A DNA stretch of 36,917 nucleotides, taken from positions 1 to 36,917 of the forward strand of contig CAZVBK010000002.1 of assembly GCA_964625485.1 (NCBI GenBank). Reading direction: 5' to 3'. Every line of letters starts with the position of its first letter. The first letter of the stretch is position 1. Shown here one piece after another: positions 1-21,059 of this stretch. Origin of the DNA: an uncultured Candidatus Saccharibacteria bacterium. Lineage in GTDB: Bacteria; Patescibacteriota; Minisyncoccia; Phycocordibacterales; UBA9973. Both the position numbers and the translations under genes were made by a program. The notes under the pieces were generated by a model, which had not been told where the DNA came from, did not search any database, and saw nothing but the letters and a program-made list of their open reading frames with translations.

Positions 1-127
1 TATTCGCGCTTATTTCATAGACAGTGTCGTACGCTCGGACAACTAAAGTATAAGCGATCAGAGAAGTCACCACAGTAAAAGCCAATAGGCAAAGCAAGGA
101 TTTATTGTGAGCAGAAAAAGATACCAT
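1..127 (-). CDS. hypothetical membrane protein, N-terminal fragment (continues past window start)
   Basis: ATG at 127-125 (minus) opens a frame still open at base 1: MVSFSAHNKSLLCLLAFTVVTSLIAYTLVVRAYDTVYEISAN... A hydrophobic helix follows a short N-region. TATAAT at 139-134 (minus) lies 6 nt upstream of the ATG. Too short for the ORF track. Confidence 0.3.
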   Translation of the reverse strand, partial: MVSFSAHNKSLLCLLAFTVVTSLIAYTLVVRAYDTVYEISAN

Positions 128-142
128 TACTTGATTATACAA

Positions 143-682
143 TTATTTTTTATAAAATTCATTTTTTAAATCATCAAACCCTTGCTTGTCGAAAACATAG
201 AAACCAATGTTGTGTATTTCGTCTTGGGCCCGATCAATTGTTTCTACTCCGATTCTTTTAAAAATAGACTTTGGGTAATGCTTATGGTTTTGTGTTGCTA
301 AGTAAAGCCTGGGCTGGCTTGAGGTGTTATATTTCCTCATTACTGAAGCAAGAAAACAGTCCGCCAGTTCAATTTTTAACTCCTTCTTCCACTCATAAAT
401 ATTAGCAATCTCAATAGCAGACTCTATTATGTCTTTTTCTATGTCTAATCCCAGCTCGTTAACATCAAGAAATTTGAGTAATTTTTCAAGCTCTTTCCTC
501 TTTTTATCGGAGTCCGTTTTTCTTAGGAATTCAAACTTAACAGTTTGATCTATTAAAAGCGTGATTCCGTTTTTTCTAAGGTCCAAGATTAATTCTTCAA
601 AAAAGGTGCCGTATTTTGAAAAATCAATCAGAACGTTGGTGTCTATTAGTAAAAATTTATTTTTTAAGGGAATATAATTCAT
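143..682 (-). CDS. PIN-domain nuclease (VapC-like toxin candidate)
   Basis: Track ORF 143-778 begins at a GTG. The first ATG (682) gives MNYIPLKNKFLLIDTNVLIDF..., the N-terminal acidic IDTN signature of PIN domains, with later LADCFLAS and LATQNHKHY segments typical of the fold. It overlaps a small upstream ORF, as in type II TA pairs. Confidence 0.6.
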   Translation of the reverse strand: MNYIPLKNKFLLIDTNVLIDFSKYGTFFEELILDLRKNGITLLIDQTVKFEFLRKTDSDKKRKELEKLLKFLDVNELGLDIEKDIIESAIEIANIYEWKKELKIELADCFLASVMRKYNTSSQPRLYLATQNHKHYPKSIFKRIGVETIDRAQDEIHNIGFYVFDKQGFDDLKNEFYKK

Positions 683-827
683 CTGAGTGCTCTCTTTTTT
701 CTGATTCGCGGATGATCTCACCTGCTCTTTTGGCAAGTTTTCTAAATTGAGAAATATCAAAAGATCCGGAATTTCCACTCCTGTTCATTTTATCTTCTTT
801 GATCTTTTCCAATATACTGTCAGCCAT
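657..827 (-). CDS. small ORF upstream of and overlapping the PIN gene (putative antitoxin, 56 aa)
   Basis: Hand translation: MADSILEKIKEDKMNRSGNSGSFDISQFRKLAKRAGEIIRESEKREHSDELYSLKK, stop TAA at 659-657. It is in a different frame from the GTG extension of the PIN ORF and is directly preceded by a near-consensus promoter. Below the 60-aa track cutoff. Confidence 0.4.
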   Translation of the reverse strand: MADSILEKIKEDKMNRSGNSGSFDISQFRKLAKRAGEIIRESEKREHSDELYSLKK

Positions 828-833
828 ACTTTA

Positions 834-863
834 ATTATAGCAAATTAAGAAAAATTCATGCAA
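834..863 (-). promoter_or_regulatory. sigma70-type promoter: TTGCAT-N18-(TGC)TATAAT, 6 nt upstream of ATG 827
   Basis: Minus strand reads TTGCAT (863-858), an 18-nt spacer, TGCTATAAT (842-834), TAAAGT, then ATG (827-825). Confidence 0.5.
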
Positions 864-884
864 TAAAAATAACTGCTTTCTGTG

Positions 885-957
885 TGCGCCCAGTTGGAAT
901 CGAACCAACGACCTTATCCTTAAAAGGGATCTGCTCTACCAGCTGAGCTATGGGCGC
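885..957 (-). tRNA. tRNA-Lys (anticodon UUU)
   Basis: Minus strand: GCGCCCATAGCTCAGCTGGTAGAGCAGATCCCTTTTAAGGATAAGGTCGTTGGTTCGATTCCAACTGGGCGCA. Acceptor stem is 7 bp (GCGCCCA/TGGGCGC) and the D arm is GCTC/GAGC. The anticodon loop is CTTTTAA and the T arm is GTTGG-TTCGATT-CCAAC. 73 nt, no encoded CCA. Confidence 0.93.
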
Positions 958-980
958 GATTGCTTGATAATACCAGATTT

Positions 981-1628
981 TTAAAAAGCTTCAAGTAGGA
1001 AGCGTTCAAAAGCCGCTTCGTCGTCGAGACCTTGCTTGCGCGCTTCCGGTAAAAGATACGATATTTTGCCAGCGAAATTCTGTAGTTCAGCTTCGGTAAA
1101 TTTACTAAAGTTCTTCTTTAGTAACATATCTTTGGCTTTCCAAAAGAGCACTCCTATAAGCTCCTCCATCCCAACACCTAAGTCCATGGCCTGCCGGAAA
1201 TGTATCCAAAGGTTTACCTTATCTCGAGCCCCAAAATCATTGGCTAAAATAAAATTATTATATTTTTCCTTTTTATCTTTTGATAATTCAAAAATATTGA
1301 GCTCAGCTCTCGCCTTCCTGAAAGCGTCAAGTATGGGTTTGCCGAGTTTACCCTCAAGGAAAATAAAATCGTTACTCGACTCTGCCATCTCAGGGAGTTT
1401 GTCTAAAATAAAATCAGTTGTCTCTTCTCGCTCTAGCACTTGAGTAAAAACAACAGAGCACTTGGAGAAAAACAGCCCTGCCCCAGAATACAGACTCTCT
1501 ATCTGGGTCTTATCGAAATCATTCCTGCCAATAAAAAACTTCTCATCTTCTTTAGGCAGAGAGTCTACGAACTTTTCATATACTTTATGACGAGTTGTGG
1601 CATCGTCTCCGGCGAAAAGGTATATCAT
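981..1628 (-). CDS. holA: DNA polymerase III delta subunit-like (HolA family, short form)
   Basis: 215 aa. The N-terminus MIYLFAGDDATTRHKVYEKF and the overall helical C-terminal half resemble clamp-loader delta subunits. Assigned by sequence resemblance only. Confidence 0.55.
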   Translation of the reverse strand: MIYLFAGDDATTRHKVYEKFVDSLPKEDEKFFIGRNDFDKTQIESLYSGAGLFFSKCSVVFTQVLEREETTDFILDKLPEMAESSNDFIFLEGKLGKPILDAFRKARAELNIFELSKDKKEKYNNFILANDFGARDKVNLWIHFRQAMDLGVGMEELIGVLFWKAKDMLLKKNFSKFTEAELQNFAGKISYLLPEARKQGLDDEAAFERFLLEAF

Positions 1629-1637
1629 TGTGATGTA

Positions 1638-2099
1638 TTAAAACCTAACAGACTTTTTGTAAGCAGAATAAGCCTCTCCGTATTTCTGCTCGAGGATCTC
1701 TTCTTGTTTCTTTATAAAAACGAGTTTGGTGATAACAAAACAAACCACTGACAGAACTACTATAAAGAATGCATTTGAAATAATCCCAAAACCAAGCACG
1801 AGGAGGAATAGACCCCAATGGGTAGGCGTACGACTGACTTTGTATGGACCACGAGCAAAAGTGTCTTTACTTAAATTCTCTATCCCCAAGTTCCTGCTAG
1901 TGGCCTGGGCCCAGACGATAAGTGCCGTCGCAAAACCAAGGCAAACGACACCTATTTTAACCATTAAAGTATCTCCGAAAAACTTTTGTGGAAAAAAGAA
2001 ATCAAGCAATAAGCCTAAAAGCAAGGCTCCTAGATATAAAGAATAAGAGTGAGCCAAAATCTTGTGCACAGTATCAGTCTTTTTTGTTTGCTCGTCCAT
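1638..2099 (-). CDS. isoprenylcysteine carboxyl / phospholipid methyltransferase family membrane protein
   Basis: 153 aa with about 4 TM helices. The GPYKVSRTPTHWG segment and the C-terminal EEILEQKYGEAYSAYKKSV tail are characteristic of ICMT/PEMT-type methyltransferases. Confidence 0.6.
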   Translation of the reverse strand: MDEQTKKTDTVHKILAHSYSLYLGALLLGLLLDFFFPQKFFGDTLMVKIGVVCLGFATALIVWAQATSRNLGIENLSKDTFARGPYKVSRTPTHWGLFLLVLGFGIISNAFFIVVLSVVCFVITKLVFIKKQEEILEQKYGEAYSAYKKSVRF

Positions 2100-2106
2100 A
2101 ATGCCT

Positions 2107-2115
2107 ATTATATCA
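2107..2115 (-). promoter_or_regulatory. extended -10 (TGATATAAT) 7 nt upstream of ATG 2099
   Basis: Minus strand reads GTGATATAAT-AGGCATT-ATG, in the 35-nt gap after the polA stop. Confidence 0.45.
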
Positions 2116-2134
2116 CAAAATCGAACCCATTTTA

Positions 2135-4603
2135 CTACTTCACTTCATCAAAATTCTGCCCTGCCCCAAAGTGAACTTCAAGTGGTATGTCCGTCTTATA
2201 CTTGAGGTATGACCTTTCAAGCACTCCCTCCATCGACTTCTTTATTATCTTTTGCGCTTCTTCCAGGACACCATCCTCTATCTCATAAACAAGTTCATCG
2301 TGAATCTGCAAAACAAGATGGGTTTTGCTTAAGATTCCCGCTTTCTCTAGATCTTCATCGGCATACCTGATGGCTAGTTTTATTATGTCGGCCGTAGCTG
2401 TCCCCTGTATCGGCGCATTCGTAGCTGTACGCTCCGCCATATTTTTCAAAAAAGGGATTCGAGAATTTATGTTTGGAAAATATCTGCGTCGTCCGAATAA
2501 TGTCTCGGTGTAATTGTTCTTGGTGGCAAAAACTTTTACACTTTCCAGATAATTCTTCACCCCGCTGAATTGATTAAAATAATTGTCATAAAACTTCTGG
2601 GCTTCTTCGCGAGTGCCTCCTAGGTTTTTACGAAGAGCAGATACGCCCATCCCATAAATAATCCCGAAGTTTATGACCTTGGCTCGCCTGCGCATCTCGG
2701 CATCCACTTTTTCTAGTGGAACATCAAACACAAAAGATGCCACTCCTGTATGAATGTCTTTTTTCTCTTTAAATATTTGAGTCATCTTTTTGTCCTCGGA
2801 AAGCATCGCTGCGACACGGAGCTCTATTTGAGAGTAGTCAAAAGCTGAAAGTTTGTGGCCCTTATCGGCTACAAAACCTTTGCGGATTCTCCTGCCAAGC
2901 TCAGTTTTAATAGGCAGGTTCTGCAGATTTGGGTCCTTGGAGGAAAACCGTCCTGTCGTTGTAGCGTTTTGTAAAAACTTGGCATGAAGCCTTCCATCTC
3001 CTCCAGCCATATCTGGTATAACATCCACATAAGTAGACAGAAGCTTCTGGAGTTCGCGGTAGGCCATTATGTCTTTTATAATAGGATTGTCTTCTTCTAA
3101 TTCTTCAAGCACAGACACCTTGGTAGAAAAAGCGCCATTGGCACCTTTTTTTGCCCCCTTCTTCCCTGGCATCTCCATGCCCATTTTTTCAAATAATACT
3201 TCTCCTAATTGTTTCGGAGAATTGATATTAAACTCCATCCCCGCCTGCTCGTAAATTTTCTTGGTTAGTTTGTCGAGCTCTTTGTGGTATAGAGTTGAAA
3301 GATCGGCAAAATATTTTTTGTCTATAAGAATCCCGCGGTCCTCCATCTTTTTTACTATCGGGATTATCGGCTTTTCTATTTCTTCATAAACCTGATCCAG
3401 TTTGTTTTCTTTGAGTTTTTTGAAAACGTATTCATAAGCCACATCAAAATCTTCAGTGTTGGCGTACATCAAAATATCAGAAAGCTCTGGGGTGCTTATG
3501 TCTGAATTTATGAGCCAAAGGGCGACAGAGGCCTCTTGGAGTTTTGTTGGGTCTGGAAGAAGAGGAGAATCTAGCAAAGTTTTCTCGGGTCCTCGGTTTA
3601 GGTCAGGAGTACCTGTCGCCAGACCAGCTCCAAAACTTTCTAGCTTCCCCCCTTCTTTTGATGTTCCGTCGCTATTTTCGTTAAAAAAATTCTTTAGTCG
3701 AGTGAACAAACTTCTAAATTCAAAAAGCTGAAACATTTGTTCAATCTTTTTCATATCAGCATTTTCCCAAAAAGTTTTTTCTGGTATTTTGAAATCCACC
3801 GGTGCGTCTCTTCTTATTTGAGCTAAGGTTTTGGAAAACAAAGCTTCTTCTTCGTTGTCTTTAAGAAGGTTTATCAACCTATCAGTCAATCCTATGTCTT
3901 TGAACTTTTTACTTTCAACTTTCAACTTCTTATACATTTCTTCTATTGTGCCGAAAGTACTTATGAGGGTTGTGGCTGTTTTCTCACCTATGCCCTTTAT
4001 GCCTATTATGTTATCTGAAGTATCCCCACGAAGACCTTTGTAGTCGGGCAAAAGCCCAGGCTTGAAACCAAACCGAGATAGCACAGCTTCTTCGTCGTAC
4101 AAAATAGTATCGTTGATCCCCTTCTTTAAGGTGTACACCTGCACTTTTTTGCCGTCGATCAACTGCATGGTATCCATGTCACCAGAAGCAATAATGATTT
4201 TGCTTTTCTTATCGTCTTTCAATTTGTCGACTATTGTGCCGAGCACATCGTCTGCTTCAAACCCCGGCGCGTCGTATATAGGGATATTGAAAGCTTCGAA
4301 AATTTGTCTGGATTTTTGTAGTTGTATTTTTAGGGCATCGTCCGTCTTGGCCCGTCCTGCTTTGTATTCCTTGTAAGCTTCGTGGCGAAAAGTCTTTTGG
4401 GGGAGGTCGTAACAGGCTATGATGTATTCGGGTTTGAGGTCAGTAACTATCTTCATCACCATAGTAGAAAGGCCGTACAGGGCTCCTGTAGGCTCGCCCT
4501 TAGAAGACATGAATTCTGGTAAGGCATGATAAGCCCGATGGATTATGGCGTGGGCATCAAGTAAAACAATGGTTTTGGTGTCTTTGGGGGTTTTAGAAGG
4601 CAT
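2135..4603 (-). CDS. polA: DNA polymerase I
   Basis: N-terminal 5-prime nuclease signatures (LLDAHAIIHRAYHA, GFEADDVLGT). C-terminal family A polymerase motifs (DYSQIELRV, RRRAKVINFGIIYG, QIHDELV). Start moved to ATG 4603 (MPSKTPKD...). The track start at 4678 would run through the divergent pilB start. Confidence 0.93.
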   Translation of the reverse strand: MPSKTPKDTKTIVLLDAHAIIHRAYHALPEFMSSKGEPTGALYGLSTMVMKIVTDLKPEYIIACYDLPQKTFRHEAYKEYKAGRAKTDDALKIQLQKSRQIFEAFNIPIYDAPGFEADDVLGTIVDKLKDDKKSKIIIASGDMDTMQLIDGKKVQVYTLKKGINDTILYDEEAVLSRFGFKPGLLPDYKGLRGDTSDNIIGIKGIGEKTATTLISTFGTIEEMYKKLKVESKKFKDIGLTDRLINLLKDNEEEALFSKTLAQIRRDAPVDFKIPEKTFWENADMKKIEQMFQLFEFRSLFTRLKNFFNENSDGTSKEGGKLESFGAGLATGTPDLNRGPEKTLLDSPLLPDPTKLQEASVALWLINSDISTPELSDILMYANTEDFDVAYEYVFKKLKENKLDQVYEEIEKPIIPIVKKMEDRGILIDKKYFADLSTLYHKELDKLTKKIYEQAGMEFNINSPKQLGEVLFEKMGMEMPGKKGAKKGANGAFSTKVSVLEELEEDNPIIKDIMAYRELQKLLSTYVDVIPDMAGGDGRLHAKFLQNATTTGRFSSKDPNLQNLPIKTELGRRIRKGFVADKGHKLSAFDYSQIELRVAAMLSEDKKMTQIFKEKKDIHTGVASFVFDVPLEKVDAEMRRRAKVINFGIIYGMGVSALRKNLGGTREEAQKFYDNYFNQFSGVKNYLESVKVFATKNNYTETLFGRRRYFPNINSRIPFLKNMAERTATNAPIQGTATADIIKLAIRYADEDLEKAGILSKTHLVLQIHDELVYEIEDGVLEEAQKIIKKSMEGVLERSYLKYKTDIPLEVHFGAGQNFDEVK

Positions 4604-4610
4604 TATGGAA

Positions 4611-4619
4611 ATTATATCA
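4611..4619 (-). promoter_or_regulatory. extended -10 (TGATATAAT) 7 nt upstream of polA ATG
   Basis: Minus strand reads GTGATATAAT-TTCCATA-ATG. This is the same 10-mer as in front of the ICMT-like gene. Confidence 0.45.
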
Positions 4620-4642
4620 CTTAAGTTATACTTTATATTAAT

Positions 4643-6340
4643 ATGGCAACATTTGACGAGACAAAACAAAATAAGCAACTCGATGACCTACACAGAACAG
4701 AAGAAGAAGAACTGGTGGCGATGCTAGCAGAAACAAAATTCAATTTACCGTACATAGACATCACTAAGGTCGGAGTAGACAACGAAGCCTTGCGATCTAT
4801 CGGTCAGACAGAAGCCCGAGAGAACCTCCTTGCGCCTTTCAAGCTTTCTGGAACCAATGTCCTCATCGCAATGCGATCTCCAACACCGGAGCTCATAGAA
4901 AAAATCACCGCAGAAATAACACCTCAAAAACTAACACCAATATTTTACATGGCTTCTATGAACAGCCTGAATAAAGTATGGGAAAGATACGAAGAGCTAT
5001 CTATGGCTGAAAACACCAAAATCGGGGGTATCGACATATCCATGGACGTGGTGAACGAAACAGCAAAAAACATCCACCAAATGGCGGACATTAAAAAATT
5101 AATCTCTGAATCTTTAGCTGAAAACCAAGTCCACCGCATCTCTAGAATACTAGAGGTTATCTTGGCAGGAGCTATAGCCATTAAGGCTTCCGACGTACAC
5201 ATAGAACCAGAGAAAGACACTAGCCGTTTGCGCATAAGACTAGACGGCGTTCTTCAAGATGTAATTTTTCTAGATACAAATATTTACAAACTCCTAAGCT
5301 CTAGAATCAAGCTCCTCTCTGGGGTCAAACTCAACTCTCAAACCTCTCAAGACGGACGATTTAGTATTATGGAAGGCGAAGATGAAATAAACATCCGTAC
5401 TTCCCTCATCCCTGGAGCTTACGGAGAGACCATAGTCATGAGAATCCTCGACCCAAAAGCTACCCGCATAGACCTAAAAGAAATAGGTATCGACCCTTTC
5501 TTGTACCAAATCGTAGAGAAAGAAATAATGAAACCAAACGGGATGATTTTAGTGACTGGTCCTACCGGCTCAGGTAAAACCACCACTTTGTACGCCTTTT
5601 TGAGTAAAATATATTCTACGGAAATAAACATAATAACCATCGAGGACCCTATCGAGTACCACCTAGACGGCATAACTCAAACCCAAACCAACGAAAAGAA
5701 AGACTATACCTTCGCAGAGGGTTTGCGTAGTGCCCTCCGCCAAGACCCTGATGTAATAATGGTCGGAGAAATCCGTGATGCCGATACTGCGAAAACAGCC
5801 GTGCAGGCCTCTCTTACTGGGCACCTTGTGCTATCAACACTCCACACCAACAACGCGGCAGGAACAATCCCCCGCCTGATAGACCTAGAGGTGAACCCTA
5901 AAATACTAGTCTCTGCTATATCCCTTTCTTTAGCTCAAAGACTTGTGAGGAAATTATGTCCTGTGTGTAAGCAAGAAACTGCTCCGACAGAAGAACAGAC
6001 CAAGACCATACAAATGGTTTTGGAAAGCATAAAAGCCGAAGGAAAAGATTTGAAAAATTATAATATAGACGCAAGTGCACCGATAAAAATGTTTAAGGCT
6101 GTGGGTTGCGATAGGTGTAACATGACTGGATACACTGGCCGTATCGGAATCTTTGAAGCCATCAAGACAGACGAAGCTATTGAAAAATTAATTTTAGAAA
6201 ATCCTAGCGAGCATGAAGTAAAGAAAGCTGCCCGAGCTCAGGGCATACTCTCCATGCGCCAAGACGGTATAGTGAAAATAATAACCGGAGTTACTTCTAT
6301 GGAAGAAGTACAGAGCGTCGTGGATCTAAATGAGGAGTAA
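4643..6340 (+). CDS. pilB: GspE/PilB-family secretion ATPase (type IV pilus assembly ATPase-like)
   Basis: Walker A GPTGSGKTTT, Asp box/Walker B DPDVIMVGEIRD, His box TGHLVLSTLHTN, tetracysteine CPVC...CDRC, and an N-terminal GSPII_E-N-like region. Confidence 0.88.
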   Translation: MATFDETKQNKQLDDLHRTEEEELVAMLAETKFNLPYIDITKVGVDNEALRSIGQTEARENLLAPFKLSGTNVLIAMRSPTPELIEKITAEITPQKLTPIFYMASMNSLNKVWERYEELSMAENTKIGGIDISMDVVNETAKNIHQMADIKKLISESLAENQVHRISRILEVILAGAIAIKASDVHIEPEKDTSRLRIRLDGVLQDVIFLDTNIYKLLSSRIKLLSGVKLNSQTSQDGRFSIMEGEDEINIRTSLIPGAYGETIVMRILDPKATRIDLKEIGIDPFLYQIVEKEIMKPNGMILVTGPTGSGKTTTLYAFLSKIYSTEINIITIEDPIEYHLDGITQTQTNEKKDYTFAEGLRSALRQDPDVIMVGEIRDADTAKTAVQASLTGHLVLSTLHTNNAAGTIPRLIDLEVNPKILVSAISLSLAQRLVRKLCPVCKQETAPTEEQTKTIQMVLESIKAEGKDLKNYNIDASAPIKMFKAVGCDRCNMTGYTGRIGIFEAIKTDEAIEKLILENPSEHEVKKAARAQGILSMRQDGIVKIITGVTSMEEVQSVVDLNEE

Positions 6341-6589: not shown

Positions 6590-6666
6590 GTGCATATAGT
6601 GGTGAATATCCTGTGAATAACTCACCAAACATACCACTATTAGAAGTATAGCATATTCTTACTGTA

Positions 6667-7695
6667 ATGTCAAGCACTACCCTCTCAAAATCGAATTCTC
6701 CCAATAATGACAAGGCTACTTTAGGAGTGGATTCTTTTTTGGATCAAACCCTCCGCCCAAACCGCTGGGACGAGTATATCGGCCAAAAACACATAAAAGA
6801 CAACGTTAAAATCCTGCTGAAGGCTGCGGAAGAGCGAGGACAAACCCCTGAACACATACTATTTTATGGCCCCCCAGGTCTAGGTAAGACAACTCTCGCC
6901 CATTTAATAGCCAAAGAAACAGGACGACAAATAAAAATAACTTCTGGGCCAGCAATAGAAAAGGTGGGAGACCTCGCTTCTATCCTTACCAACCTTGCTC
7001 CTGGAGATATTCTTTTCATCGACGAGATCCACCGACTAAATAAAATGGTGGAAGAGATACTCTACCCTGCTATGGAGTCAGGGGTTCTCGATATCATCAT
7101 CGGTAAGGGTCCTTCAGCTCGTACCATCCAGCTAGACTTGCCACCATTCACCATGATAGCCGCTACGACTCGCGTGGCAATGGTCTCCTCCCCTCTTCGC
7201 TCCAGATTTTCTGGTGGAGTGTTTCGACTAGAATTTTATTCCGACGAAGAGATAGGTGCTATCGTCAAACGCTCAAGCGCGCTTCTAAACACCGAGCTCG
7301 ATGATGGGGCTCTAAAAGAGATCGCTAAGCGAAGTCGTTTCACTCCCCGTATGGCCAACTACTTTTTGAAACGATGTCGTGACTACGCCCAGGTTCACAA
7401 GAAAAGTTTAGACAAAGAAACAGTAAAGAATGCCCTAGCTATGCTCTCGATAGATGAGATGGGTCTAAACGCTTCTGATAGAAAGTTCCTAGAGATACTA
7501 ATCGAAAAGTTCAACGGACGAGCTGTGGGACTAAAAACCTTAAGCGCTGCCCTAGGCGAAGAAGAGTCTACGCTTGAAGAAGTAGTCGAGCCGTACCTCA
7601 TCCAACTTGGACTCCTTGAACGAACTGTACGCGGAAGAGTGGCTACCCCGAAAGCCTATGTACATTTAGGCTTTGATTTACCTGAAGAAAAATAA
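6667..7695 (+). CDS. ruvB: Holliday junction branch migration helicase RuvB
   Basis: LRPNRWDEYIGQ, Walker A GPPGLGKTT, Walker B IDEIHRL, and the full-length family pattern. Confidence 0.96.
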   Translation: MSSTTLSKSNSPNNDKATLGVDSFLDQTLRPNRWDEYIGQKHIKDNVKILLKAAEERGQTPEHILFYGPPGLGKTTLAHLIAKETGRQIKITSGPAIEKVGDLASILTNLAPGDILFIDEIHRLNKMVEEILYPAMESGVLDIIIGKGPSARTIQLDLPPFTMIAATTRVAMVSSPLRSRFSGGVFRLEFYSDEEIGAIVKRSSALLNTELDDGALKEIAKRSRFTPRMANYFLKRCRDYAQVHKKSLDKETVKNALAMLSIDEMGLNASDRKFLEILIEKFNGRAVGLKTLSAALGEEESTLEEVVEPYLIQLGLLERTVRGRVATPKAYVHLGFDLPEEK

Positions 7696-9695: not shown

Positions 9696-9759
9696 CCCGT
9701 TAGAAATTTAGTTAAATTCTTAATAATCACAAACCCAACGTTAAATAATTTCTAACGGG
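9696..9759 (-). promoter_or_regulatory. tyrS leader hairpin abutting the start codon
   Basis: 13-bp perfect inverted repeat CCCGTTAGAAATT (9696-9708) / AATTTCTAACGGG (9747-9759) with a 38-nt loop. On the tyrS mRNA the 3-prime arm ends at the base immediately before AUG (9695). Confidence 0.45.
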
Positions 9760-9771
9760 ATTCATGCTCGA

Positions 9772-9780
9772 ATCATAACA
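9772..9780 (-). promoter_or_regulatory. extended -10 (TGTTATGAT) for tyrS
   Basis: Minus strand TGTTATGAT. The predicted start near 9765 places the whole hairpin in a ~70-nt 5-prime UTR. It stands back to back with the PBP promoter. Confidence 0.4.
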
Positions 9781-9787
9781 CATTTTC

Positions 9788-9796
9788 TGCTATGAT
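9788..9796 (+). promoter_or_regulatory. extended -10 (TGCTATGAT) 8 nt upstream of the PBP1A ATG
   Basis: TGCTATGAT-TAAATATC-ATG (ATG at 9805). Confidence 0.4.
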
Positions 9797-9804
9797 TAAA
9801 TATC

Positions 9805-12348
9805 ATGAAAATTTACCAAAAACTTCATCACCAACTAAAGAGACTTCTAAGGAAAAGGCCAAAAATCCATAAAAACATGGTTCTTTTGGCAGCTGGAGTC
9901 TGTATTTTAATGGCAGGGCTTATCGCTCTATGGCTAGCATCTTTTAAGATTCCTGATTTTGAATCTTTTCAGGATAGAAAGATAATAAATTCAACTAAAA
10001 TATATGACCGCACCGGTGAGATTCTTCTGTACGACATAAACAAAGACGTCCGAAGAACTGACATCAAATTCGAAGAGATGGGTCAAAATATTAAGAACGC
10101 GACTATCGCCGTAGAAGATGCGGAATTTTACAACCACAACGGTATCCGCATCAGCTCTATATTCCGCGCAACTGTCTGGGCCACACTTACAGGCAAAAGA
10201 GTAACTGGTGGTTCGACTATCACTCAGCAGTTGATAAAAAACACTTTATTGAACGCCAAAGTCACCCCAGCCCGAAAAATAAAGGAGTGGGTGCTGGCCA
10301 TAAAACTCGATAAGGCCCTGCCTAAAGATAAAATATTAGAACTTTATCTAAATGAGGTTCCCTACGGTGGAACTATTTACGGTATAAAGGAAGCTAGTCA
10401 AACCTACTTCGGCAAAAAGCCGGTAGATCTGACAATAGCCGAGGCTGCCTATTTGGCTTCTATCCCACAATCCCCTACAGTGCTTTCTCCTTATGGTAAA
10501 AACAAAGACAAACTAGAAGAAAGAAAAAACTTTGTATTGTTTAGAATGAGTGAGGTTGGTTACTTAACCAAAGAGGAATACGAGGCGGCAAAAGCTGAAG
10601 TAGTAACATTCTTGCCTCAATCCATAAGTGGAATAAAGGCACCCCACTTTGTTTTCTACATAAAGGAATACTTGGAACAAAAGTACGGTGTTGAAACAGC
10701 GCAAAGAGGAGGGCTAAGGGTCACCACAACCTTGGACTACGATCTTCAGATGAAGGGTGAAGAGTTTGTAAAAGCTGGGGCCCTAGCGAACGAAAAAGAT
10801 TGGGGTGGCAGTAATGCTAGTTTGGTGGCGATTGACCCCAAGACGGGCCAAATACTGACAATGGTGGGCTCTAGAGATTACTTTGACAAAGCAATCGATG
10901 GAAATTTCAACGTGGCCACCGCAAGCCGTCAGCCGGGTTCTTCTTTCAAGCCATTTATTTATGCTACAGCGTTCAATAAAGGCTTTACTCCGGACACAAC
11001 CTTATTCGATGTTCCAACAGAATTCCAAACAACATGTAACTCCGAAGGAAGAGCGGTCTCCGGCAGTCAATCAGACTGTTATATGCCTCAAAACTATGAT
11101 GGTTTAAACAGAGGGCCCATGAGACTACGTGACGCCTTAGCACAATCCATAAACGTGCCTGCAGTAAAACTATTTTACTTGGTTGGATTAAAGGACGCCC
11201 TTAAAACATCTGAAGATATGGGGATCAGCACCCTCACAAATGTAAATCAATACGGACTTACTTTGGTTATCGGAGGTGGAGAGGTTACCCTTCTCGACAT
11301 GACCTCAGCTTATGGTGTTTTTGCTAATAGTGGTATTAAAGAAAATTACAATGGAATACTAAAGATTGAGGATTCAAATGGAAACATATTGGAAGAGTAC
11401 CGATCAACCGCAAAGGAAGTTCTTCCTAAGAATACAGCATTAACAATCTCTGATATTTTATCTGACAACAAAGCAAGAACACCTACCTTCGGGGGGAACT
11501 CTGTTCTTGTTGTCCCTGGGCACGATGTAGCAGTAAAAACAGGTACCACAAACAGCAACAAGGACGCTTGGATAGTAGGCTACAATCCAAATCTTGTGGT
11601 TGGTGTATGGGCTGGTAACAACGACAATAAGCCAATGAAAAAAGGTGGTGCGGCTCTGGCTGGACCAATATGGAACAAATTCATGGCGGAAGCATTTAAA
11701 AAGATTCCAAGTGAGAGTTTTGAAGAACCAAACCTTATGCTTGATGTAACAACCGTAAAACCAGCACTCCGTGGATACTGGCAAGGAAATGAGAGTTTCT
11801 TTATTGATAAAGTATCCGGCAAACTAGCCACAGAGTTTACCCCAAGAGAAACAATGGAAGAAAAAGTGGTAACCAATGTTCACACAATTTTACATTGGGT
11901 AAACAAGCGCGACATCACTGGCCCTGCCCCAACAAACCCAAGTAGTGATCCTCAATACGACAACTGGGAAGCTCCTGTGCAAAAATGGTGGGCGCAAAAT
12001 AAAAATAGATACAATATCGTAGACTGGTCTACAAAGCCAACACAGTTCGACGATGTGCACACCGAAGCCGGAGCTCCTACTGTTTCCATATTGGAGCCAA
12101 ACAGTATGACGACTTATACTAAAAACCAAAAAATACAATTAAAAATAAATAGTTTCGGTAAATTCCCACTACAAAAAGTTGATGTGTTTATAAACGACAA
12201 CTATCTCGGGACCCTTAGTGCCCCATTCAACTTCTCTTTCGTTCCTGAGGGGCTAGAAAATTTGGAGGAAATAAATACCATCAGCGTAGTCGCTTACGAT
12301 ACTGCCTACAACAGATCTGAAACATCTGCCTCATTCATCGTAAAATAA
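9805..12348 (+). CDS. ponA: class A penicillin-binding protein (glycosyltransferase + transpeptidase) with C-terminal extension
   Basis: N-terminal TM anchor. GT51 motifs EDAEFYNHNG and GGSTITQQL. Transpeptidase motifs SSFKP (SxxK) and KTGTTN (KTG). About 150 extra C-terminal residues look like a beta-sandwich domain. Confidence 0.92.
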   Translation: MKIYQKLHHQLKRLLRKRPKIHKNMVLLAAGVCILMAGLIALWLASFKIPDFESFQDRKIINSTKIYDRTGEILLYDINKDVRRTDIKFEEMGQNIKNATIAVEDAEFYNHNGIRISSIFRATVWATLTGKRVTGGSTITQQLIKNTLLNAKVTPARKIKEWVLAIKLDKALPKDKILELYLNEVPYGGTIYGIKEASQTYFGKKPVDLTIAEAAYLASIPQSPTVLSPYGKNKDKLEERKNFVLFRMSEVGYLTKEEYEAAKAEVVTFLPQSISGIKAPHFVFYIKEYLEQKYGVETAQRGGLRVTTTLDYDLQMKGEEFVKAGALANEKDWGGSNASLVAIDPKTGQILTMVGSRDYFDKAIDGNFNVATASRQPGSSFKPFIYATAFNKGFTPDTTLFDVPTEFQTTCNSEGRAVSGSQSDCYMPQNYDGLNRGPMRLRDALAQSINVPAVKLFYLVGLKDALKTSEDMGISTLTNVNQYGLTLVIGGGEVTLLDMTSAYGVFANSGIKENYNGILKIEDSNGNILEEYRSTAKEVLPKNTALTISDILSDNKARTPTFGGNSVLVVPGHDVAVKTGTTNSNKDAWIVGYNPNLVVGVWAGNNDNKPMKKGGAALAGPIWNKFMAEAFKKIPSESFEEPNLMLDVTTVKPALRGYWQGNESFFIDKVSGKLATEFTPRETMEEKVVTNVHTILHWVNKRDITGPAPTNPSSDPQYDNWEAPVQKWWAQNKNRYNIVDWSTKPTQFDDVHTEAGAPTVSILEPNSMTTYTKNQKIQLKINSFGKFPLQKVDVFINDNYLGTLSAPFNFSFVPEGLENLEEINTISVVAYDTAYNRSETSASFIVK

Positions 12349-13704: not shown

Positions 13705-13964
13705 ATAATTGTTTATATCTTATATATTTAAATTATTAATACTATTAGTAGTGTTGATAAGTGGATAAGTCTATGTTGCCTTGTATTTTATGGTTATTTT
13801 GGAATTTATTTATTAATCTTGCCTGTATAACTTAAGGTCATAATTGGGTAAATAAATCAGTTTCTGTATTTTCGTAAAACTTATCATTTTTTATCCCCAT
13901 CTCTACTTAAACTTTTCAACACTTTATAATATCTTTTCCACAGATTTAAACTACTTATACACAA
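13705..13964. other. oriC candidate (dnaA-dnaN spacer): AT-rich unwinding region plus DnaA boxes
   Basis: Nearly pure A/T tract at 13705-13750. Abutting boxes TGTTGATAA and AGTGGATAA at 13752-13768 (reverse complements TTATCAACA and TTATCCACT). Also TTATCCCCA at 13891-13899, TTTTCCACA at 13934-13942 and TTATACACA at 13955-13963. Confidence 0.7.
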
Positions 13965-15308
13965 CTATTTGAACATAACTCTGATTGTTTCTAATTCTTG
14001 CAACAATTGTGGATCATTCTTAATATCCTCTTTTATTTTTAAATAAGAGTGGATGACTGTGGTGTGGTCCTTCCCTCCCAGTTTCTGCCCTATCAGTGGG
14101 TAAGACACATTGAAATCTTCTCGAAGTAGGTACATGACTATCTGTCTAGCCTTCACAATCTCCTTTCGGCGAGTCTTTTCGTATACAGAATTTTCTTCTA
14201 GGCCATAATGATCGCTCACTATCTTCACTACATCTTTGATAGCAACATTCTTTTTTGGTCGGATGTTGTTCTTGAGAAGGTTTTTTACTTCTATTAAAGA
14301 CAAAGGTTTGTTTTTGAGACGATACTGGCAAACTATAGTGTTCAAACTCCCCTCTAGTTCGCGGATGTTGCCTTGAACAGCAGAGGCCACGTATTCAACT
14401 ATCTCTTTATCTAGCTCTATGCCCAACTCTTCTAGCTTAACCTTCAATATTGCGAGCCTAGACTCGTATTCTGGCTCAGAGACATCTACTATCATTCCGG
14501 CAGAAAACCTTGATTTTAAGCGGTCTGCGAGCTCTGGGATATAGTTTGGGTGCTTGTCAGAAGAAAAGACTATTTGTTTGTTGTTTTCATGGAAAGTATT
14601 GAAGGTGTGGAAGAGTTCTTCTTGGATTTTCTCCATTTTACCTATGAATTGGATGTCGTCTATGATCAATAGATCGTATTTTCGGTACTTTTCCTTGAAA
14701 GAATTAGCCTTATTGCTCTGGAGAGAGTTGATGAAGTCAGTAGCGAACTTCTCTAGGGTCATGTAGTGGACTTTTTTGTCTGGAAAGCGGTCTTTTATAG
14801 AGTTACCGATAGCTTGTAAAAGGTGGGTTTTACCCAAACCTGTCTGTCCGTAGACAAAGAAAGGGTTGTACTTGGTCCCCGGGCTCTCAACTATCGCTTG
14901 GGAGGCTGCATAAGCCAGCTCATTGAATCCACCAACGATAAAAGAGTCGAAGCGGTACCTTGAATTAAGGTTATCCCCAGGATTTACGTATAGATTTTGT
15001 AAAGGAAGCTCTTTGTTGGCCAAAACCTCATTGTTTTTAGGTATTTCTGTTTTATTGGCTTCTGCTTTAGCGATAACATACTCCACTGCCCTCATGTTCT
15101 CAAAGGCGTTGGCGATAGTCTTGGTTATTAGCTTGTGGTACTTGTTTTTAAGCCAATCCCTAACGAATTCATTCGGTACCCCTACGTAAATGATCCCAGT
15201 GTCCTCTTTTAAAATAGAAGTGTTTTTAAACCAAGTACTGAAATTCGCCTTTGAAACACCAGTTTCTATTTCAGAGAGGCAGTTTCTCCATAGTTCCTTT
15301 GTATCCAT
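13965..15308 (-). CDS. dnaA: chromosomal replication initiator DnaA
   Basis: Walker A GQTGLGKTHL, Walker B LLIIDDIQF, and a C-terminal DNA-binding helix-turn-helix (LGGKDHTTVIHS). Start set at ATG 15308 (MDTKELWRNC...), 7 nt after a TATAAT. ATG 15317 is the alternative. The track start 15449 would overlap the divergent rpmH start. Confidence 0.93.
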   Translation of the reverse strand: MDTKELWRNCLSEIETGVSKANFSTWFKNTSILKEDTGIIYVGVPNEFVRDWLKNKYHKLITKTIANAFENMRAVEYVIAKAEANKTEIPKNNEVLANKELPLQNLYVNPGDNLNSRYRFDSFIVGGFNELAYAASQAIVESPGTKYNPFFVYGQTGLGKTHLLQAIGNSIKDRFPDKKVHYMTLEKFATDFINSLQSNKANSFKEKYRKYDLLIIDDIQFIGKMEKIQEELFHTFNTFHENNKQIVFSSDKHPNYIPELADRLKSRFSAGMIVDVSEPEYESRLAILKVKLEELGIELDKEIVEYVASAVQGNIRELEGSLNTIVCQYRLKNKPLSLIEVKNLLKNNIRPKKNVAIKDVVKIVSDHYGLEENSVYEKTRRKEIVKARQIVMYLLREDFNVSYPLIGQKLGGKDHTTVIHSYLKIKEDIKNDPQLLQELETIRVMFK

Positions 15309-15315
15309 GAATTGC

Positions 15316-15321
15316 ATTATA
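15316..15321 (-). promoter_or_regulatory. -10 hexamer TATAAT 7 nt upstream of dnaA ATG 15308
   Basis: Minus strand reads GGTAGTATAAT-GCAATTC-ATGGATAC. Confidence 0.4.
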
Positions 15322-15958: not shown

Positions 15959-16139
15959 TTTATACCAAAAATATATCTCAAGACTAAAAAAACCAAGCTG
16001 CGTTTTTTATCCTACTTGTTCAGTCTATGCAAAAACAGCCTTAGAAAAACACGGTGCATTTAAGGGAACCAAGCTAACTTTTTTTCGCATACTTCGCTGT
16101 CATCCTTGGCAGAAGAACCAGATCGATCTTGTGCCCTAG
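15924..16139 (+). CDS. yidD: membrane protein insertion efficiency factor YidD
   Basis: LIKLIDLYQKYIS...CVFYPTCSVYAKTALEKHG...RILRCHPW is the YidD signature. Start is ATG 15924 (or 15903). The upstream part of track ORF 15732-16139 is an out-of-frame overlap with rnpA. Confidence 0.85.
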   Translation: MKLKQSLIKLIDLYQKYISRLKKPSCVFYPTCSVYAKTALEKHGAFKGTKLTFFRILRCHPWQKNQIDLVP

Positions 16140-16167
16140 TTTTCATTTGGAATTTCCGTCATTTTCG

Positions 16168-16175
16168 TATAGAAT
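16168..16175 (+). promoter_or_regulatory. -10-like TATAGAAT 6 nt upstream of yidC ATG
   Basis: TAGAAT (16170-16175)-GACAGA-ATG (16182). Confidence 0.3.
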
Positions 16176-16181
16176 GACAGA

Positions 16182-16928
16182 ATGTTACATAATCTTTGGG
16201 ATTTCTTACTTTTCAAGCCTCTAGTCAATCTTTTGGCCTTTCTTATATCTATTGTACCGGGTGGAGATGTGGGCATAGCCATCATCTTGCTTACTCTTTT
16301 GGTAAAAATTGCACTCTATCCCCTCTCTCAGAAGTCTATCGAGAGCCAGGGCAAAATGGCGATCCTTGCTCCAGAAATAAATAAAATAAAAGAAAGTGGA
16401 GCAAGCCAAGAAGAACAAGCTCGCCAGACTTTTGCTCTATACAAGAAACACAAGACTAATCCTTTTTCTGGTTGTCTTTTGGTGTTGATTCAAATACCAA
16501 TAATTTTTGCCCTATACTATGTTTTCTTGAAGGGAATAAAATTTGACCCAAGTCTTCTTTATTCTTTTATTGCTCACCCAGAAAACATGAACATGTCTTT
16601 CCTTGGGTTTATAGACATTGGTTCTAAGAGTGTTTTCTTGGCTATTTTAGCTGGACTATCTCAATACGCTCAAGCGCACTTTATGCCGAAGCCCGCACCG
16701 TCTTCTGGCAACAGTGGCTCTTTCCAAGATAGTTTTGCAAAGAGCATGCATATCCAGATGAGATACGTCTTCCCTTTCGTGGTGGCCTTTATCGCATACA
16801 CTATTTCTGGAGCGATTGCGCTTTACTGGATTGTAAGTAATATGTTTGCAGTAGGTCAGCAGATTTATGCCAATAAAAAGCACGCTAAGATGCTACCGCA
16901 AGAGATAAAAGTCCAAAATCAAAAATAA
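16182..16928 (+). CDS. yidC: membrane protein insertase YidC (short, monoderm/CPR-type)
   Basis: 248 aa, 5 TM helices, YidC/Oxa1 core pattern (PLSQKSIESQGKM..., LYKKHKTNPFSGCLLVLIQIPIIFALY). Synteny after yidD. Confidence 0.9.
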   Translation: MLHNLWDFLLFKPLVNLLAFLISIVPGGDVGIAIILLTLLVKIALYPLSQKSIESQGKMAILAPEINKIKESGASQEEQARQTFALYKKHKTNPFSGCLLVLIQIPIIFALYYVFLKGIKFDPSLLYSFIAHPENMNMSFLGFIDIGSKSVFLAILAGLSQYAQAHFMPKPAPSSGNSGSFQDSFAKSMHIQMRYVFPFVVAFIAYTISGAIALYWIVSNMFAVGQQIYANKKHAKMLPQEIKVQNQK

Positions 16929-16940
16929 ATTTATAACAGC

Positions 16941-17417: not shown

Positions 17418-17418
17418 T

Positions 17419-18729: not shown

Positions 18730-18742
18730 ATTATATTTCTAA

Positions 18743-20038
18743 TTATCTACCACTTGTGGACCAATGCCAAGCCTCTGAAGGAAGGTTTATAAAACCATAA
18801 GTCTCTGCATTCTTATCTAGCCAAATAAAACAGGGACTGTTTTTGTCCGGTATTCCTCTCGTACTACCATTACAAGTAAAGTCTACTGCTAAGCCGGTTT
18901 CATGCATTGATGTGCCAGGGAAGGCTGTTGGAGGTTTGCATTGTGACGGAGGTGTGCTGTATAGGTCACCATTGCAGTGCTGAGCTCTCAGTTGCATCTG
19001 GCGGGCACGAGTCCTCCAACCCCAACCACCCAAATTTACCCCTTGGGCTTTAGCCGCTGCTATCATGTCAGTAAGTTTTTGGGCGATACGGCCACAAACA
19101 GTAAAATTTCCGCCTGCTGTGCTTACGCTTTTTATACCCTCAGGACACCTACTCGGGGTTGCAGCTGCTCCAGCTGGAACCCCTGTTGGGAAATTACTGG
19201 CAGTTGGTACCACTCCACCGTCGGAGTCCATACCAATTGTTACAAGTACGGCATCTTTTATCTGAGGATCGGTTATTAGTAGGTCTGGGTTTATCGTGTT
19301 TAATACAACATAAGAACCAAGCGCCAGTATTAATCCTCCTATTGCACCCAATATTCTTTTCTTTCCCTCATCTTTATGCGACACCAGCTCTGTGGTCATG
19401 TATTCTATTCCCCCTACCACTATCATTAGCATCGCCAAGACAGCGCAAATACCTATGAACAGTCTGATCATCAGGTTTAAATAGGTGCTAAACGAATTTG
19501 ATTTAGTTGCGTCAAAGTTTTGCCCGTCGAAATTACCTCCCATAGAAGGAAGAGGGGTCAGTAATTTGTAGTTTCTTGCTCCGTCAGGCAGACAACTGGT
19601 TTTTCCGCTGGCGTCAGTGTAGGACACTGTGTTCGTAGGACAGTTGTTCGGGTTATTTGAACCCATTCCTGTAGTACTAGGAGTAGCTACTGTTACTTGG
19701 ACACTGTTTGAGGCATATCCAGTCGCACTTGCAGTGATCGTGAAAGTTCCCGCAGGTGAACTGGCGCCGTGGACAAAATCTACTGCACAGAATCCTACGC
19801 TTGGAGAGATTGAGCACAATGTTGGAGACAGCGCTCCTCCTGTTGTAGAAAAATTTATATTTACGGCAGTGGTTTTAGGTGAAGGCAGAGCAACTGTTAT
19901 TTTGGTTTGTTGTCCTGGTTGGATTGTTGCCACCCCTGCTCCTATGTGTAGTTGAGGCGTCTGGGCAAGCAAGACACCTGGCAAAAATATGCTAAGTAGG
20001 ATAATTAGTATTAAAAATTTCTGTGGCCTTTGGTTCAT
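18743..20038 (-). CDS. tripartite envelope protein: signal peptide + Ig-like domain, T4SS-pilin-type double-TM module, C-terminal M15 (VanY-like) peptidoglycan peptidase
   Basis: Signal peptide FLILIILLSIFLPGVLLAQ. The pilin module YKLLTPLP...YLNLMIRLFIGICAVLAMLMIVVGGIEYM...ILGAIGGLILALGSYVVLNTINPDLL matches the CPR/monoderm T4SS_pilin (TrbC/VirB2-like) pattern. The C-terminus carries LAS-metallopeptidase motifs SMHETGLAVD and SEAWHW. Confidence 0.65.
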   Translation of the reverse strand: MNQRPQKFLILIILLSIFLPGVLLAQTPQLHIGAGVATIQPGQQTKITVALPSPKTTAVNINFSTTGGALSPTLCSISPSVGFCAVDFVHGASSPAGTFTITASATGYASNSVQVTVATPSTTGMGSNNPNNCPTNTVSYTDASGKTSCLPDGARNYKLLTPLPSMGGNFDGQNFDATKSNSFSTYLNLMIRLFIGICAVLAMLMIVVGGIEYMTTELVSHKDEGKKRILGAIGGLILALGSYVVLNTINPDLLITDPQIKDAVLVTIGMDSDGGVVPTASNFPTGVPAGAAATPSRCPEGIKSVSTAGGNFTVCGRIAQKLTDMIAAAKAQGVNLGGWGWRTRARQMQLRAQHCNGDLYSTPPSQCKPPTAFPGTSMHETGLAVDFTCNGSTRGIPDKNSPCFIWLDKNAETYGFINLPSEAWHWSTSGR

Positions 20039-20039
20039 T

Positions 20040-21047
20040 TTAAAATCCTATGGTTATGCTCTTACTTGCGGTTTGGAACAGCTTATCTGTGTTTTCAATA
20101 TCAAGCCTCAGCGTAGATGCGCCAGATATTCCCTCTTGTACTGTTAAGGGCATCATGTTTTTATTGTAATTCCTTATTTCTTGCATTTCTTCGTCTATAT
20201 ACCAGCGGAATACCCAGATAGGATAATTGAATTCTTTTGGAGATATATAATATGGCGCAGCGACCAAAACCATGCTTTGATCTATAGTGTGACCATCCTC
20301 CAAGGCATTGTTCCAGTCCACTCCAAAAACAGCGTCTTTTTTATAGAAAGTTATCTCAGGTTCGGATGCTGAGGTTGTAATACTTGCCTCTGCGGAAGCG
20401 CTTTGGTCTAAGGTCGAAGCAACGACAGACACACTACTAACTGGCTCCAGGAAGTCGCTCATAAACACATAAGAGTTTTTTCCGTACCCAGATCCATCTG
20501 GGTCATTAGTGTAGTCCTTTTTCCAAGAATAGGTGAGATTTTTAGGATTGATAGTTCCATTACCAGATTTTATCTCTGGCATAGCCACTATTTTTACATC
20601 ACTACCCTCTGTCAGCAGGGCTTTACCCTTATAAAAAGGTGGAACGTAAGCATCATTTGCTTGCCACAATAGAGTCATGACAGCTGGTTTGATGTTTAGC
20701 CTTTTCCTCAATTCCCCGTTTACTGTACCAATGACAACTTCTATCTGAGTGGTGACCCCAAGAGCCCCAGATTCAATGCTAAATGACTTTTTGCCCACCC
20801 CAGACAGAACACTTTTGCCGTTAACAAGCCAAGTTATGAGGAGACTGTCTAGGTTTAGAGAATATGTACTTAGTGTTAGGCTCACCTCTTCATGAGGATT
20901 TGGGTTTTCGGGAACCGAAGTTAGGAGTATGTCAGTTGCTGAAACGGCCAATGCTTTTTCTGGAATACCAAGAAAATAAAAAGCAAAGATGAAAATCGGT
21001 AGCATAACCGAAAGAACTGGAAGTACCGATGAAGTTTTTAATCTCAT
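20040..21047 (-). CDS. secreted/anchored protein, probable tandem beta-sandwich repeats; unknown function
   Basis: N-terminal hydrophobic segment (VLPVLSVMLPIFIFAFYFLGI). Three segments each contain a Trp-centred strand (ITWLVNGK, TYSWKKDY, VFRWYIDEE). No recognisable catalytic motif. Confidence 0.45.
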   Translation of the reverse strand: MRLKTSSVLPVLSVMLPIFIFAFYFLGIPEKALAVSATDILLTSVPENPNPHEEVSLTLSTYSLNLDSLLITWLVNGKSVLSGVGKKSFSIESGALGVTTQIEVVIGTVNGELRKRLNIKPAVMTLLWQANDAYVPPFYKGKALLTEGSDVKIVAMPEIKSGNGTINPKNLTYSWKKDYTNDPDGSGYGKNSYVFMSDFLEPVSSVSVVASTLDQSASAEASITTSASEPEITFYKKDAVFGVDWNNALEDGHTIDQSMVLVAAPYYISPKEFNYPIWVFRWYIDEEMQEIRNYNKNMMPLTVQEGISGASTLRLDIENTDKLFQTASKSITIGF

Positions 21048-21053
21048 AATTTA

Positions 21054-21059
21054 ATTATA
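21054..21059 (-). promoter_or_regulatory. -10 hexamer TATAAT 6 nt upstream of ATG 21047 (possible internal promoter)
   Basis: Minus strand reads GGTTATATAAT-TAAATT-ATG. Confidence 0.35.

Follow-up and report, generated by a model that had tools for sequence, protein, structure and literature searches.

What would lead a ribosome to the start of a gene whose promoter ends only a few nucleotides before its start codon? The question is raised by a 36.9-kb stretch of DNA, called the window here, which forms the first part of contig C2 of a bacterial genome of 633,755 bp (79 contigs, 42% GC, estimated completeness 88.8%). Eight ATG codons in the window are each preceded, at a distance of 6 to 8 nt, by a hexamer resembling the −10 element of bacterial promoters, and a first-pass annotation of the window had read these sites as evidence that leaderless mRNAs are the default for operon-leading genes. 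The reading favoured here, to which a probability of about 0.85 is given, is that of a genome-wide leaderless design, in which the hexamers are sigma-70-type −10 elements set 6 to 8 nt before ATG and the mRNAs carry no 5′ leader. The host, a groundwater-type bacterium, is placed among the ultra-small bacteria of the candidate phyla radiation (CPR/Patescibacteria), Parcubacteria type, because the DnaA protein encoded in the window is 81–88% identical to DnaA of 80 related species, whose records are mostly labelled Candidatus Nomurabacteria, Paceibacterota or Patescibacteria group.

All eight strings of hexamer, spacer and ATG were found where the first-pass annotation had put them, on the strands given. 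They are as follows, with N and a number denoting the nucleotides between hexamer and ATG:

125–139, minus strand: TATAAT (139–134), N6, ATG (127–125); membrane protein gene truncated by the contig end
825–863, minus strand: −35 TTGCAT (863–858), 18-bp hexamer spacing, TGC-TATAAT (842–834), N6, ATG (827–825); open reading frame (ORF) of 56 aa
2097–2115, minus strand: TGA-TATAAT (2115–2107), N7, ATG (2099–2097); PEMT/ICMT-like methyltransferase, position weight matrix score 14.1
4601–4619, minus strand: TGA-TATAAT (4619–4611), N7, ATG (4603–4601); polA
9788–9807, plus strand: TGC-TATGAT (9788–9796), N8, ATG (9805–9807); PBP1A
15306–15321, minus strand: TATAAT (15321–15316), N7, ATG (15308–15306); dnaA, site kept in relatives
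16170–16184, plus strand: TAGAAT (16170–16175), N6, ATG (16182–16184); yidC, site kept in relatives
21045–21059, minus strand: TATAAT (21059–21054), N6, ATG (21047–21045); protein of 335 aa

One detail had been misplaced. At 825–863 the string and coordinates hold, and the 18 nt that had been put between TTGCAT and the downstream element is the hexamer-to-hexamer distance; 15 nt separate TTGCAT from TGCTATAAT. Across the window the pattern TATAATN{6,8}ATG has seven matches, six of them sites listed above, compared with 1.17 ± 1.16 in 100 dinucleotide shuffles, none of which reached seven. The seventh match, TATAAT-N7-ATG at 32721–32736 on the plus strand, lies antisense inside a large minus-strand gene (32022–34169) and is either a chance occurrence or an antisense start.

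The distance between hexamer and start codon was then tabulated for the whole genome, a check that the first-pass annotation had proposed. Every ATG opening at least 100 codons was taken, free of any gene model, and TATAAT was counted at each offset k from 0 to 40. Offsets 6, 7 and 8 gave 38, 20 and 9 sites, and any other offset gave about 2; when one mismatch was tolerated, the three offsets gave 86, 42 and 22 sites against a background of about 16. A sharp peak thus stands at spacers 6–8 and nowhere else, and the case named beforehand as refuting the idea, a hexamer equally frequent at any offset, does not describe this genome. A reversed pattern of equal composition occurred 8 times in the genome, compared with 85 for the real one. 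The peak belongs to ATG alone, with no hexamer spacing peak before GTG or TTG starts genome-wide.

For scoring gene by gene, 627 genes (88% coding) were called with a simple in-house ORF and dicodon caller. A matrix of 11 positions derived from the sites (TRTGnTAtAAT, T1, A2 and T6 of the hexamer being near-invariant) was applied at spacers 5–9, and the threshold for a leaderless-type layout was set at the level reached by 1% of internal in-frame ATGs, which served as controls; a −10-like hexamer at N5–9 precedes 1.6% of such internal ATGs. The threshold was passed by 163 of the 627 genes (26%). After subtraction of expected false hits, the layout was estimated to be present in 47–55% of genes with a divergent upstream neighbour, which are unambiguous operon leaders, in about 40–60% of genes lying 41–100 nt behind a same-strand gene, and in 14–25% of those separated by no more than 10 nt from the same-strand gene before them. 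The last share implies that in some cases the promoter falls within the 3′-terminal part of the gene ahead. The idea of leaderless mRNAs as the default for operon-leading genes is therefore borne out in part: the layout is concentrated on leading genes, at a share of about half of them and not nearly all. Spacers were distributed as N6:80, N7:32, N8:20, N9:13 and N5:4. In model bacteria, the first transcribed nucleotide is usually the seventh one past the −10 hexamer. Combined with a mode of N6, this makes position +1 coincide exactly with the A of the start codon.

The hexamers come with the other parts of a promoter. When the sites were aligned on the hexamer, T (55%), T (56%) and G/T were found at −23 to −21, corresponding to a −35 TTG at a 17-bp spacer, in an analysis that was independent of how the sites had been selected. 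At 16–19 bp, 41% of the sites carried a −35 with no more than two mismatches to TTGACA, compared with 16% of intragenic −10-like words. A TGn extension preceded 50% of sites and 5% of controls, and in a site set picked without regard to TG the two positions were T in 63% and G in 56%. With the near-invariance of T1, A2 and T6 that is characteristic of −10 elements, the sites have the −10, TGn and 17-bp-spaced −35 of sigma-70-type promoters. A generic promoter scan, with 55 promoters found and 40 expected, was uninformative. In 13 of 58 divergent gene pairs the start codons are at most 60 bp apart, which leaves no room for two promoters and two leaders.

The geometry is conserved between species. 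A −10 hexamer with at most one mismatch stands at N5–10 before dnaA in 66 of the 80 related species, and 6 further species carry at the dnaA start a hairpin element that is described below. Most of the remaining 8 have TATAAT a few nucleotides farther off, and in these the aligned start is probably off by one or two codons. The yidC layout was present in 57 of 78 species with TAGAAT retained, and in 56 of the 57 the spacer is exactly N6. Internal genes served as negative controls, and the layout was seen in 0 of 78 species for rnpA and 6 of 78 for dnaN; selection thus acts on the geometry of individual genes. In a same-genus relative (G006), the first 260 kb of a 336-kb contig contained 18 TATAAT-N6-ATG sites against a background of about 1. 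Spacing peak, TGn and −35 context, bias towards operon-leading genes and conservation all support the leaderless interpretation of the first-pass annotation, with transcript 5′ ends that are predicted from this geometry.

No Shine-Dalgarno (SD) signal was found upstream of any gene class in this genome. In the 20 nt upstream of 201 high-confidence, unambiguous, non-leaderless starts the sequence is A/T-rich and depleted of G (G 5% at −6 to −4, A 58–59% at −6 and −5), it pairs with the canonical anti-SD only as well as shuffled sequence does, and no positioned hexamer is present. A weak excess of GGAG at k = 5 among all long-ORF ATGs (45 against about 25) was considered as residual SD use and was rejected, as it was gone at the high-confidence starts. 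In agreement with the absence of SD sequences from the mRNAs, the 16S rRNA of three same-genus and three same-order relatives continues after helix 45 with GGAAUAAUUCAAUUU, GGAAUCAUUCAAUUU or similar instead of GGAUCACCUCCUUA, and contains no CCUCC. The first-pass annotation had asked what the 16S 3′ end looks like, and in same-genus relatives it reads ...GGAAUAAUUCAAUUU, an outcome that also supports its interpretation. This tail was also tried as a replacement anti-SD and rejected: its duplex energies with the 201 upstream regions equal those of the reversed tail and of shuffled sequence, and 5-mers complementary to it show no positional peak in these regions. In G006 the 16S gene without CCUCC and the N6 peak are on the same 336-kb contig, and the two features are thus physically linked.

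Both kinds of start region are weakly structured, with −2.0 versus −5.4 kcal/mol for 40-mers at the starts of non-leaderless genes and −2.5 versus −5.5 kcal/mol for the 5′ ends of predicted leaderless mRNAs. By class, the genes comprise 163 of leaderless type, 140 with a start no more than 10 nt from the same-strand gene before them, which are candidates for termination-reinitiation, and 324 that are leadered without an SD or are unresolved. Among ribosomal parts, uL1 (PF00687) and bS21 (PF01165) had no match in this 88.8%-complete genome, so that both absences are provisional; uL1 was matched in 14 of 14 control genomes. A short S1-like protein is encoded in a 366-aa frame at C7:8649–9578.

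Under the leaderless design, RNA polymerase would use promoters of the form −35 TTG, 17-bp spacer, often TGn, and TAtAAT, and would start at the A of the start codon or within 1–2 nt of it. The ribosome would recognise the 5′-terminal AUG directly, and the remaining genes would depend on start regions that are unstructured, rich in A/U and poor in G, together with close stop-start spacing. A leaderless pathway of this kind is known from the cI and tetR mRNAs of E. coli, from Actinobacteria and Deinococcus, and from archaea.

Several points weigh against this design. The transcript 5′ ends are placed by sequence geometry, using a −10-to-start distance borrowed from model bacteria, and spacers of N8–N9 possibly allow a leader of 1–3 nt; most relatives have N8 at dnaA. 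About half of the leading genes lack the layout. IF3, which in E. coli disfavours leaderless initiation, is encoded in this genome. The 16S rRNA is absent from its assembly and the 3′ end was read in relatives. The percentages are estimates, as the gene caller is a simple one of our own and leaderless starts were picked partly by motif.

The alternative that survives best, itself unlikely, accepts the promoters as real and makes the leaderless transcript only one isoform, with upstream read-through or transcription starts 2–5 nt farther upstream, and with SD-independent initiation at internal AUGs; most of the mRNAs would then be polycistronic or carry a short leader. Read-through is indeed likely for the sites within 10 nt of a preceding same-strand gene (the 14–25% share given above), and most dnaA relatives have N8–N9 spacers. 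Internal AUGs are evidently usable, since the non-leaderless genes of this genome initiate without an SD, and genes that have received a hairpin insertion are presumably still expressed from an internal AUG. Against this stand the spacer mode of N6, which sets +1 on the A, a yidC spacing conserved to the nucleotide (56 of 57 at N6) and the restriction of the peak to ATG, which is what would be expected if a 5′-terminal AUG is the signal. It is considerably less probable that the hexamer is no promoter at all but a working part of the mRNA, an A/U-rich ribosome-binding or enhancer element of a non-SD kind comparable to that of Bacteroidota 'group B'. In favour of this, the upstream regions of all genes are A/U-rich and G-poor and an S1-like protein is encoded. 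However, the motif is accompanied by TGn and by a −35 TTG at 17 bp, keeps T1, A2 and T6 near-invariant as −10 elements do, favours operon-leading genes, is missing from conserved internal ones (rnpA, 0 of 78), and is not found in position at high-confidence non-leaderless starts. Chance pairing of TATAAT-like words with ATG, which AT-rich intergenic regions and some 350 TAnnnT words per offset among all ATGs might seem to favour, is already refuted by the offset profile with its 10- to 20-fold peak at N6–7 only, and equally by the window count (7 versus 1.2 in shuffles), the reversed pattern (85 versus 8) and conservation across species.

The leaderless design also changes how two other starts in the window are understood. 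The first-pass annotation had described an SD-like GGGGAG before an internal virB4-like gene and a structured leader of about 70 nt before tyrS. The features concerned are:

22944–22965, minus strand: TATAAT (22965–22960), 13 nt containing GGGGAG, ATG (22946–22944); virB4-like gene
9763–9780, minus strand: TGT-TATGAT (9780–9772, hexamer 9777–9772), N6, ATG (9765–9763); original tyrS start
9696–9759, minus strand: 64-bp copy of a hairpin element, arms CCCGTTAGAAAT and ATTTCTAACGGG, flanks ATGAAT and ATGAAA

The −10 of the virB4-like gene begins immediately behind the stop codon of the gene before it, and the GGGGAG sits in the N13 spacer between this TATAAT and the ATG. With no anti-SD in the 16S rRNA of relatives and no SD signal here, GGGGAG probably cannot work as an SD, and the SD-like reading is abandoned; the spacing suggests an internal promoter with a short leader of 6–7 nt.

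At tyrS the hairpin is there, and what had been described as a structured leader is a copy of a dispersed element inserted into a start that was probably leaderless before. The ATG at 9765–9763 now opens a 12-codon mini-ORF (MNPVRNYLTLGL) whose codons form the 5′ arm of the element, and the working tyrS ATG (9695–9693) adjoins the hairpin, its first two bases being able to extend the helix. The 5′ copy of the ATG is still at N6 from its TATGAT, so tyrS was probably once leaderless too. The element consists of a 12-bp helix with arms CCCGTTAGAA(A/G)T and A(C/T)TTCTAACGGG, and its ends read TCCCGTTAGAR. This genome has five copies, all adjoining a start codon: that of tyrS, that of a gene whose product begins MKLIVGLGNP and which is presumably pth, and those of three other genes. 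Besides the tyrS copy these are:

C46:2236–2301
C17:4936–5010
C17:6035–6095
C4:22607–22724

About 27 copies are present in one relative (G360), and a strict form of the pattern was found in 25 of 201 genomes of the class, with 0 for a reversed control. The arms co-vary (TTAG/CTAA, TACG/CGTA, AAAT/ATTT, AAGT/ACTT), the cores vary in length and sequence, and both orientations occur. Copies are flanked by 6-bp direct repeats such as ATGGGT/ATGGGT, ATGCAT/ATGCAT, ATGAGT/ATGAGT, ACGCAT/ACGCAT and GTCAAC/GTCAAC; among unselected G360 copies the flanking repeats agree at no fewer than 5 of 6 positions in 12 of 20. The dnaA start shows the insertion itself. Most species have TATAAT-N7/8-ATGAAT there, and the related loci L043, L046, L064, L005, L014 and L016 have TATAAT-N8-ATG(A/G)AT-[element]-ATG(A/G)AT. 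These six are filled sites with a duplicated target, and the relatives hold the empty sites.

By these features the element looks like a miniature inverted-repeat transposable element (MITE) with leaderless start codons as its landing sites. No search was aimed at transposases, and no partner encoding one was identified. Among the arm pairs listed in three genomes nearly all are 27–190 nt apart, and one opposite-oriented pair in G475 is about 5 kb apart (C2:28041/33045). An Rfam search with the tyrS leader returned nothing credible (best E = 0.2, a plant miRNA model), and at gathering scores the window gave tRNA only. In one G360 locus (L130, C9:1483–1673) two element arms enclose 191 nt with tRNA-like sequence (GGTGAGGTGGCCGAGTGG...), so that the locus may consist of two half-elements or of one element with a tRNA inside.

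The displaced tyrS AUG could be reached if translation of the mini-ORF melts the hairpin and re-initiation follows, or it could be freed by processing of the hairpin. A broader interpretation is offered tentatively, as one that is rather less likely than its contrary. It holds that recognition of the 5′-terminal AUG is the main way of loading ribosomes in anti-SD-less Paceibacteria, that the genome is built around it, and that the TCCCGTTAGAR hairpin prefers leaderless starts and duplicates their ATG. Promoters would then be set on start codons even inside upstream genes, and the hairpin would survive on the essential genes dnaA, dnaN, tyrS and pth, possibly because the duplicated 5′ AUG opens a leaderless mini-ORF; translating it would unfold the hairpin and deliver ribosomes to the gene that was displaced.

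The element resembles Correia/NEMIS of Neisseria and other bacterial MITEs, which are short hairpin repeats with terminal inverted and flanking direct repeats, present in many copies and co-transcribed with neighbouring genes, as the tyrS element appears to be. It differs from them in its position on start codons, where it doubles the ATG and leaves a leaderless mini-ORF, and in that no transposase partner was identified.

Some further features of the window concern the surroundings of these sites. The 56-aa ORF at ATG 827–825 precedes and overlaps a PIN-domain gene, and its promoter site comes directly after a tRNA gene (885–957). The 335-aa protein had no Pfam match, and the −10 of its gene is immediately preceded by a hairpin and then a T-run. 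The genes polA and pilB are divergent, and with start codons 39 bp apart (4601–4645) their promoters must overlap each other; in front of pilB, TATACT stands at a distance of 10 nt from the ATG. The best match to the sigma-70 consensus in the first 20 kb, TTGACA-17-TATACT with TG (11 of 12) at 6645–6673 on the minus strand, is oriented away from ruvB and into the spacer between pilB and ruvB, which carries a 20-bp inverted repeat; the RNA made from it may be a small RNA or an antisense one. Directly before the dnaN ATG (13705–13745, minus strand) stands an A/T-only block, TAATAGTATTAATAGATTAAATATATAAGATATAAACA, that is conserved nearly base for base across related species. The block could act as a promoter or as a conserved leader, or it could belong to the replication origin between dnaA and dnaN.

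The spread of the layout across the phylum was gauged in 300 Patescibacteria genomes, 266 of them informative, with the ratio of TATAATN{6,7}ATG to the reversed pattern, an index that is crude and depends on composition. It was at least 2 in 119 of the 266 genomes and at least 3 in 47, and the present genome (85 versus 8) ranks at the top. CCUCC followed helix 45 in 160 of the 300 genomes, and the 16S motif was found without CCUCC in 22. A phylum-wide tie between the leaderless signal and loss of CCUCC was examined and not upheld, the median index being 1.63 with CCUCC and 2.17 without (p = 0.18), with no clear split. By this crude index, the layout appears widespread and uneven in the phylum, and not simply tied to loss of the anti-SD.

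As the first-pass annotation had suggested, the layout can guide the choice of start codons, and the dnaA start at 15308 and the PBP1A start at 9805 were used accordingly; like the other seven ATGs, that of PBP1A opens a real gene. For poorly annotated genomes this amounts to an annotation rule, which selects 15308 and not 15449 for dnaA, and 4603 and not 4678 for polA. At polA the start at 4678, which belongs to a longer TTG-started ORF, was rejected; in the short form from 4603 the Pfam 5′–3′ exonuclease domain begins at residue 12. The layout also predicts promoter positions, including positions inside genes, which is relevant to the genetics and metatranscriptomics of these organisms. It would illustrate how a bacterium without an anti-SD can start translation, with about a quarter of its genes able to use a leaderless route and the rest an SD-independent one. 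Patescibacteria make up a very large and possibly deep-branching share of bacterial diversity and have reduced ribosomes. If the design, free of SD and rich in leaderless mRNAs, holds throughout the lineage, it would offer a natural system in which to ask what mode of initiation needs the fewest parts.

No paper describing leaderless promoters in Patescibacteria, Saccharibacteria or the candidate phyla radiation was found in a literature search that left most subscription journals outside its full-text coverage, and by title and abstract the combination of Shine-Dalgarno with Parcubacteria or Patescibacteria brought nothing further on leaderless promoters. Within the same phylum, passages of Tsurumaki et al. 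(2022; PMC9297842) describe a Parcubacteria subgroup that lacks the anti-SD in its 16S rRNA and also lacks uL1, and passages of PMC10783764 count Campbellbacteria and Wolfebacteria among 'SD-scarce' organisms without CCUCC. The present genome resembles the anti-SD-less Parcubacteria in phylum, in a uL1 gene that was not found and in mRNAs without SD, and its relatives show the 16S feature. The two sources differ from the present analysis in subject, their passages dealing with rRNA loss and SD scarcity and containing no promoters abutting start codons and no leaderless mRNAs.

Among Bacteroidota, Flavobacterium johnsoniae (PMC6847099) naturally lacks SD sequences, and weak mRNA structure and A-rich upstream positions tune initiation. 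The non-leaderless genes here are similar, with A at 58–59% at −6 and −5 and −2.0 versus −5.4 kcal/mol, although the anti-SD is retained in Bacteroidota and no richness in leaderless mRNA is reported for them. In the archaeal 'group D' (Haloferax volcanii, Sulfolobus solfataricus) a majority or large share of units likewise start at the AUG with little or no SD, but the archaeal TATA box lies about 26 nt upstream and the polymerase and initiation factors are different ones.

The closest counterpart is 'group C' of GeneMarkS-2 (Lomsadze et al. 2018, PMC6028130), defined by a Pribnow box 6–8 nt before the start of operon-first genes. Group C genomes are mainly those of Actinobacteria and Deinococcus-Thermus, for example Mycobacterium tuberculosis, Streptomyces, Corynebacterium and Deinococcus deserti, and 25–50% of their operons are predicted to be leaderless. 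Here too the −10 is localised at N6–8, on an estimated 47–55% of unambiguous leading genes. Patescibacteria are not among the lineages named in that study, and in the present genome promoters often lie within the gene ahead. Group C species use SD sequences for their other genes and keep the anti-SD, whereas no SD signal was found here and the 16S rRNA of relatives is without CCUCC. The layout is of a known kind, and it appears to differ from that of classical group C in operating without an SD system beside it.

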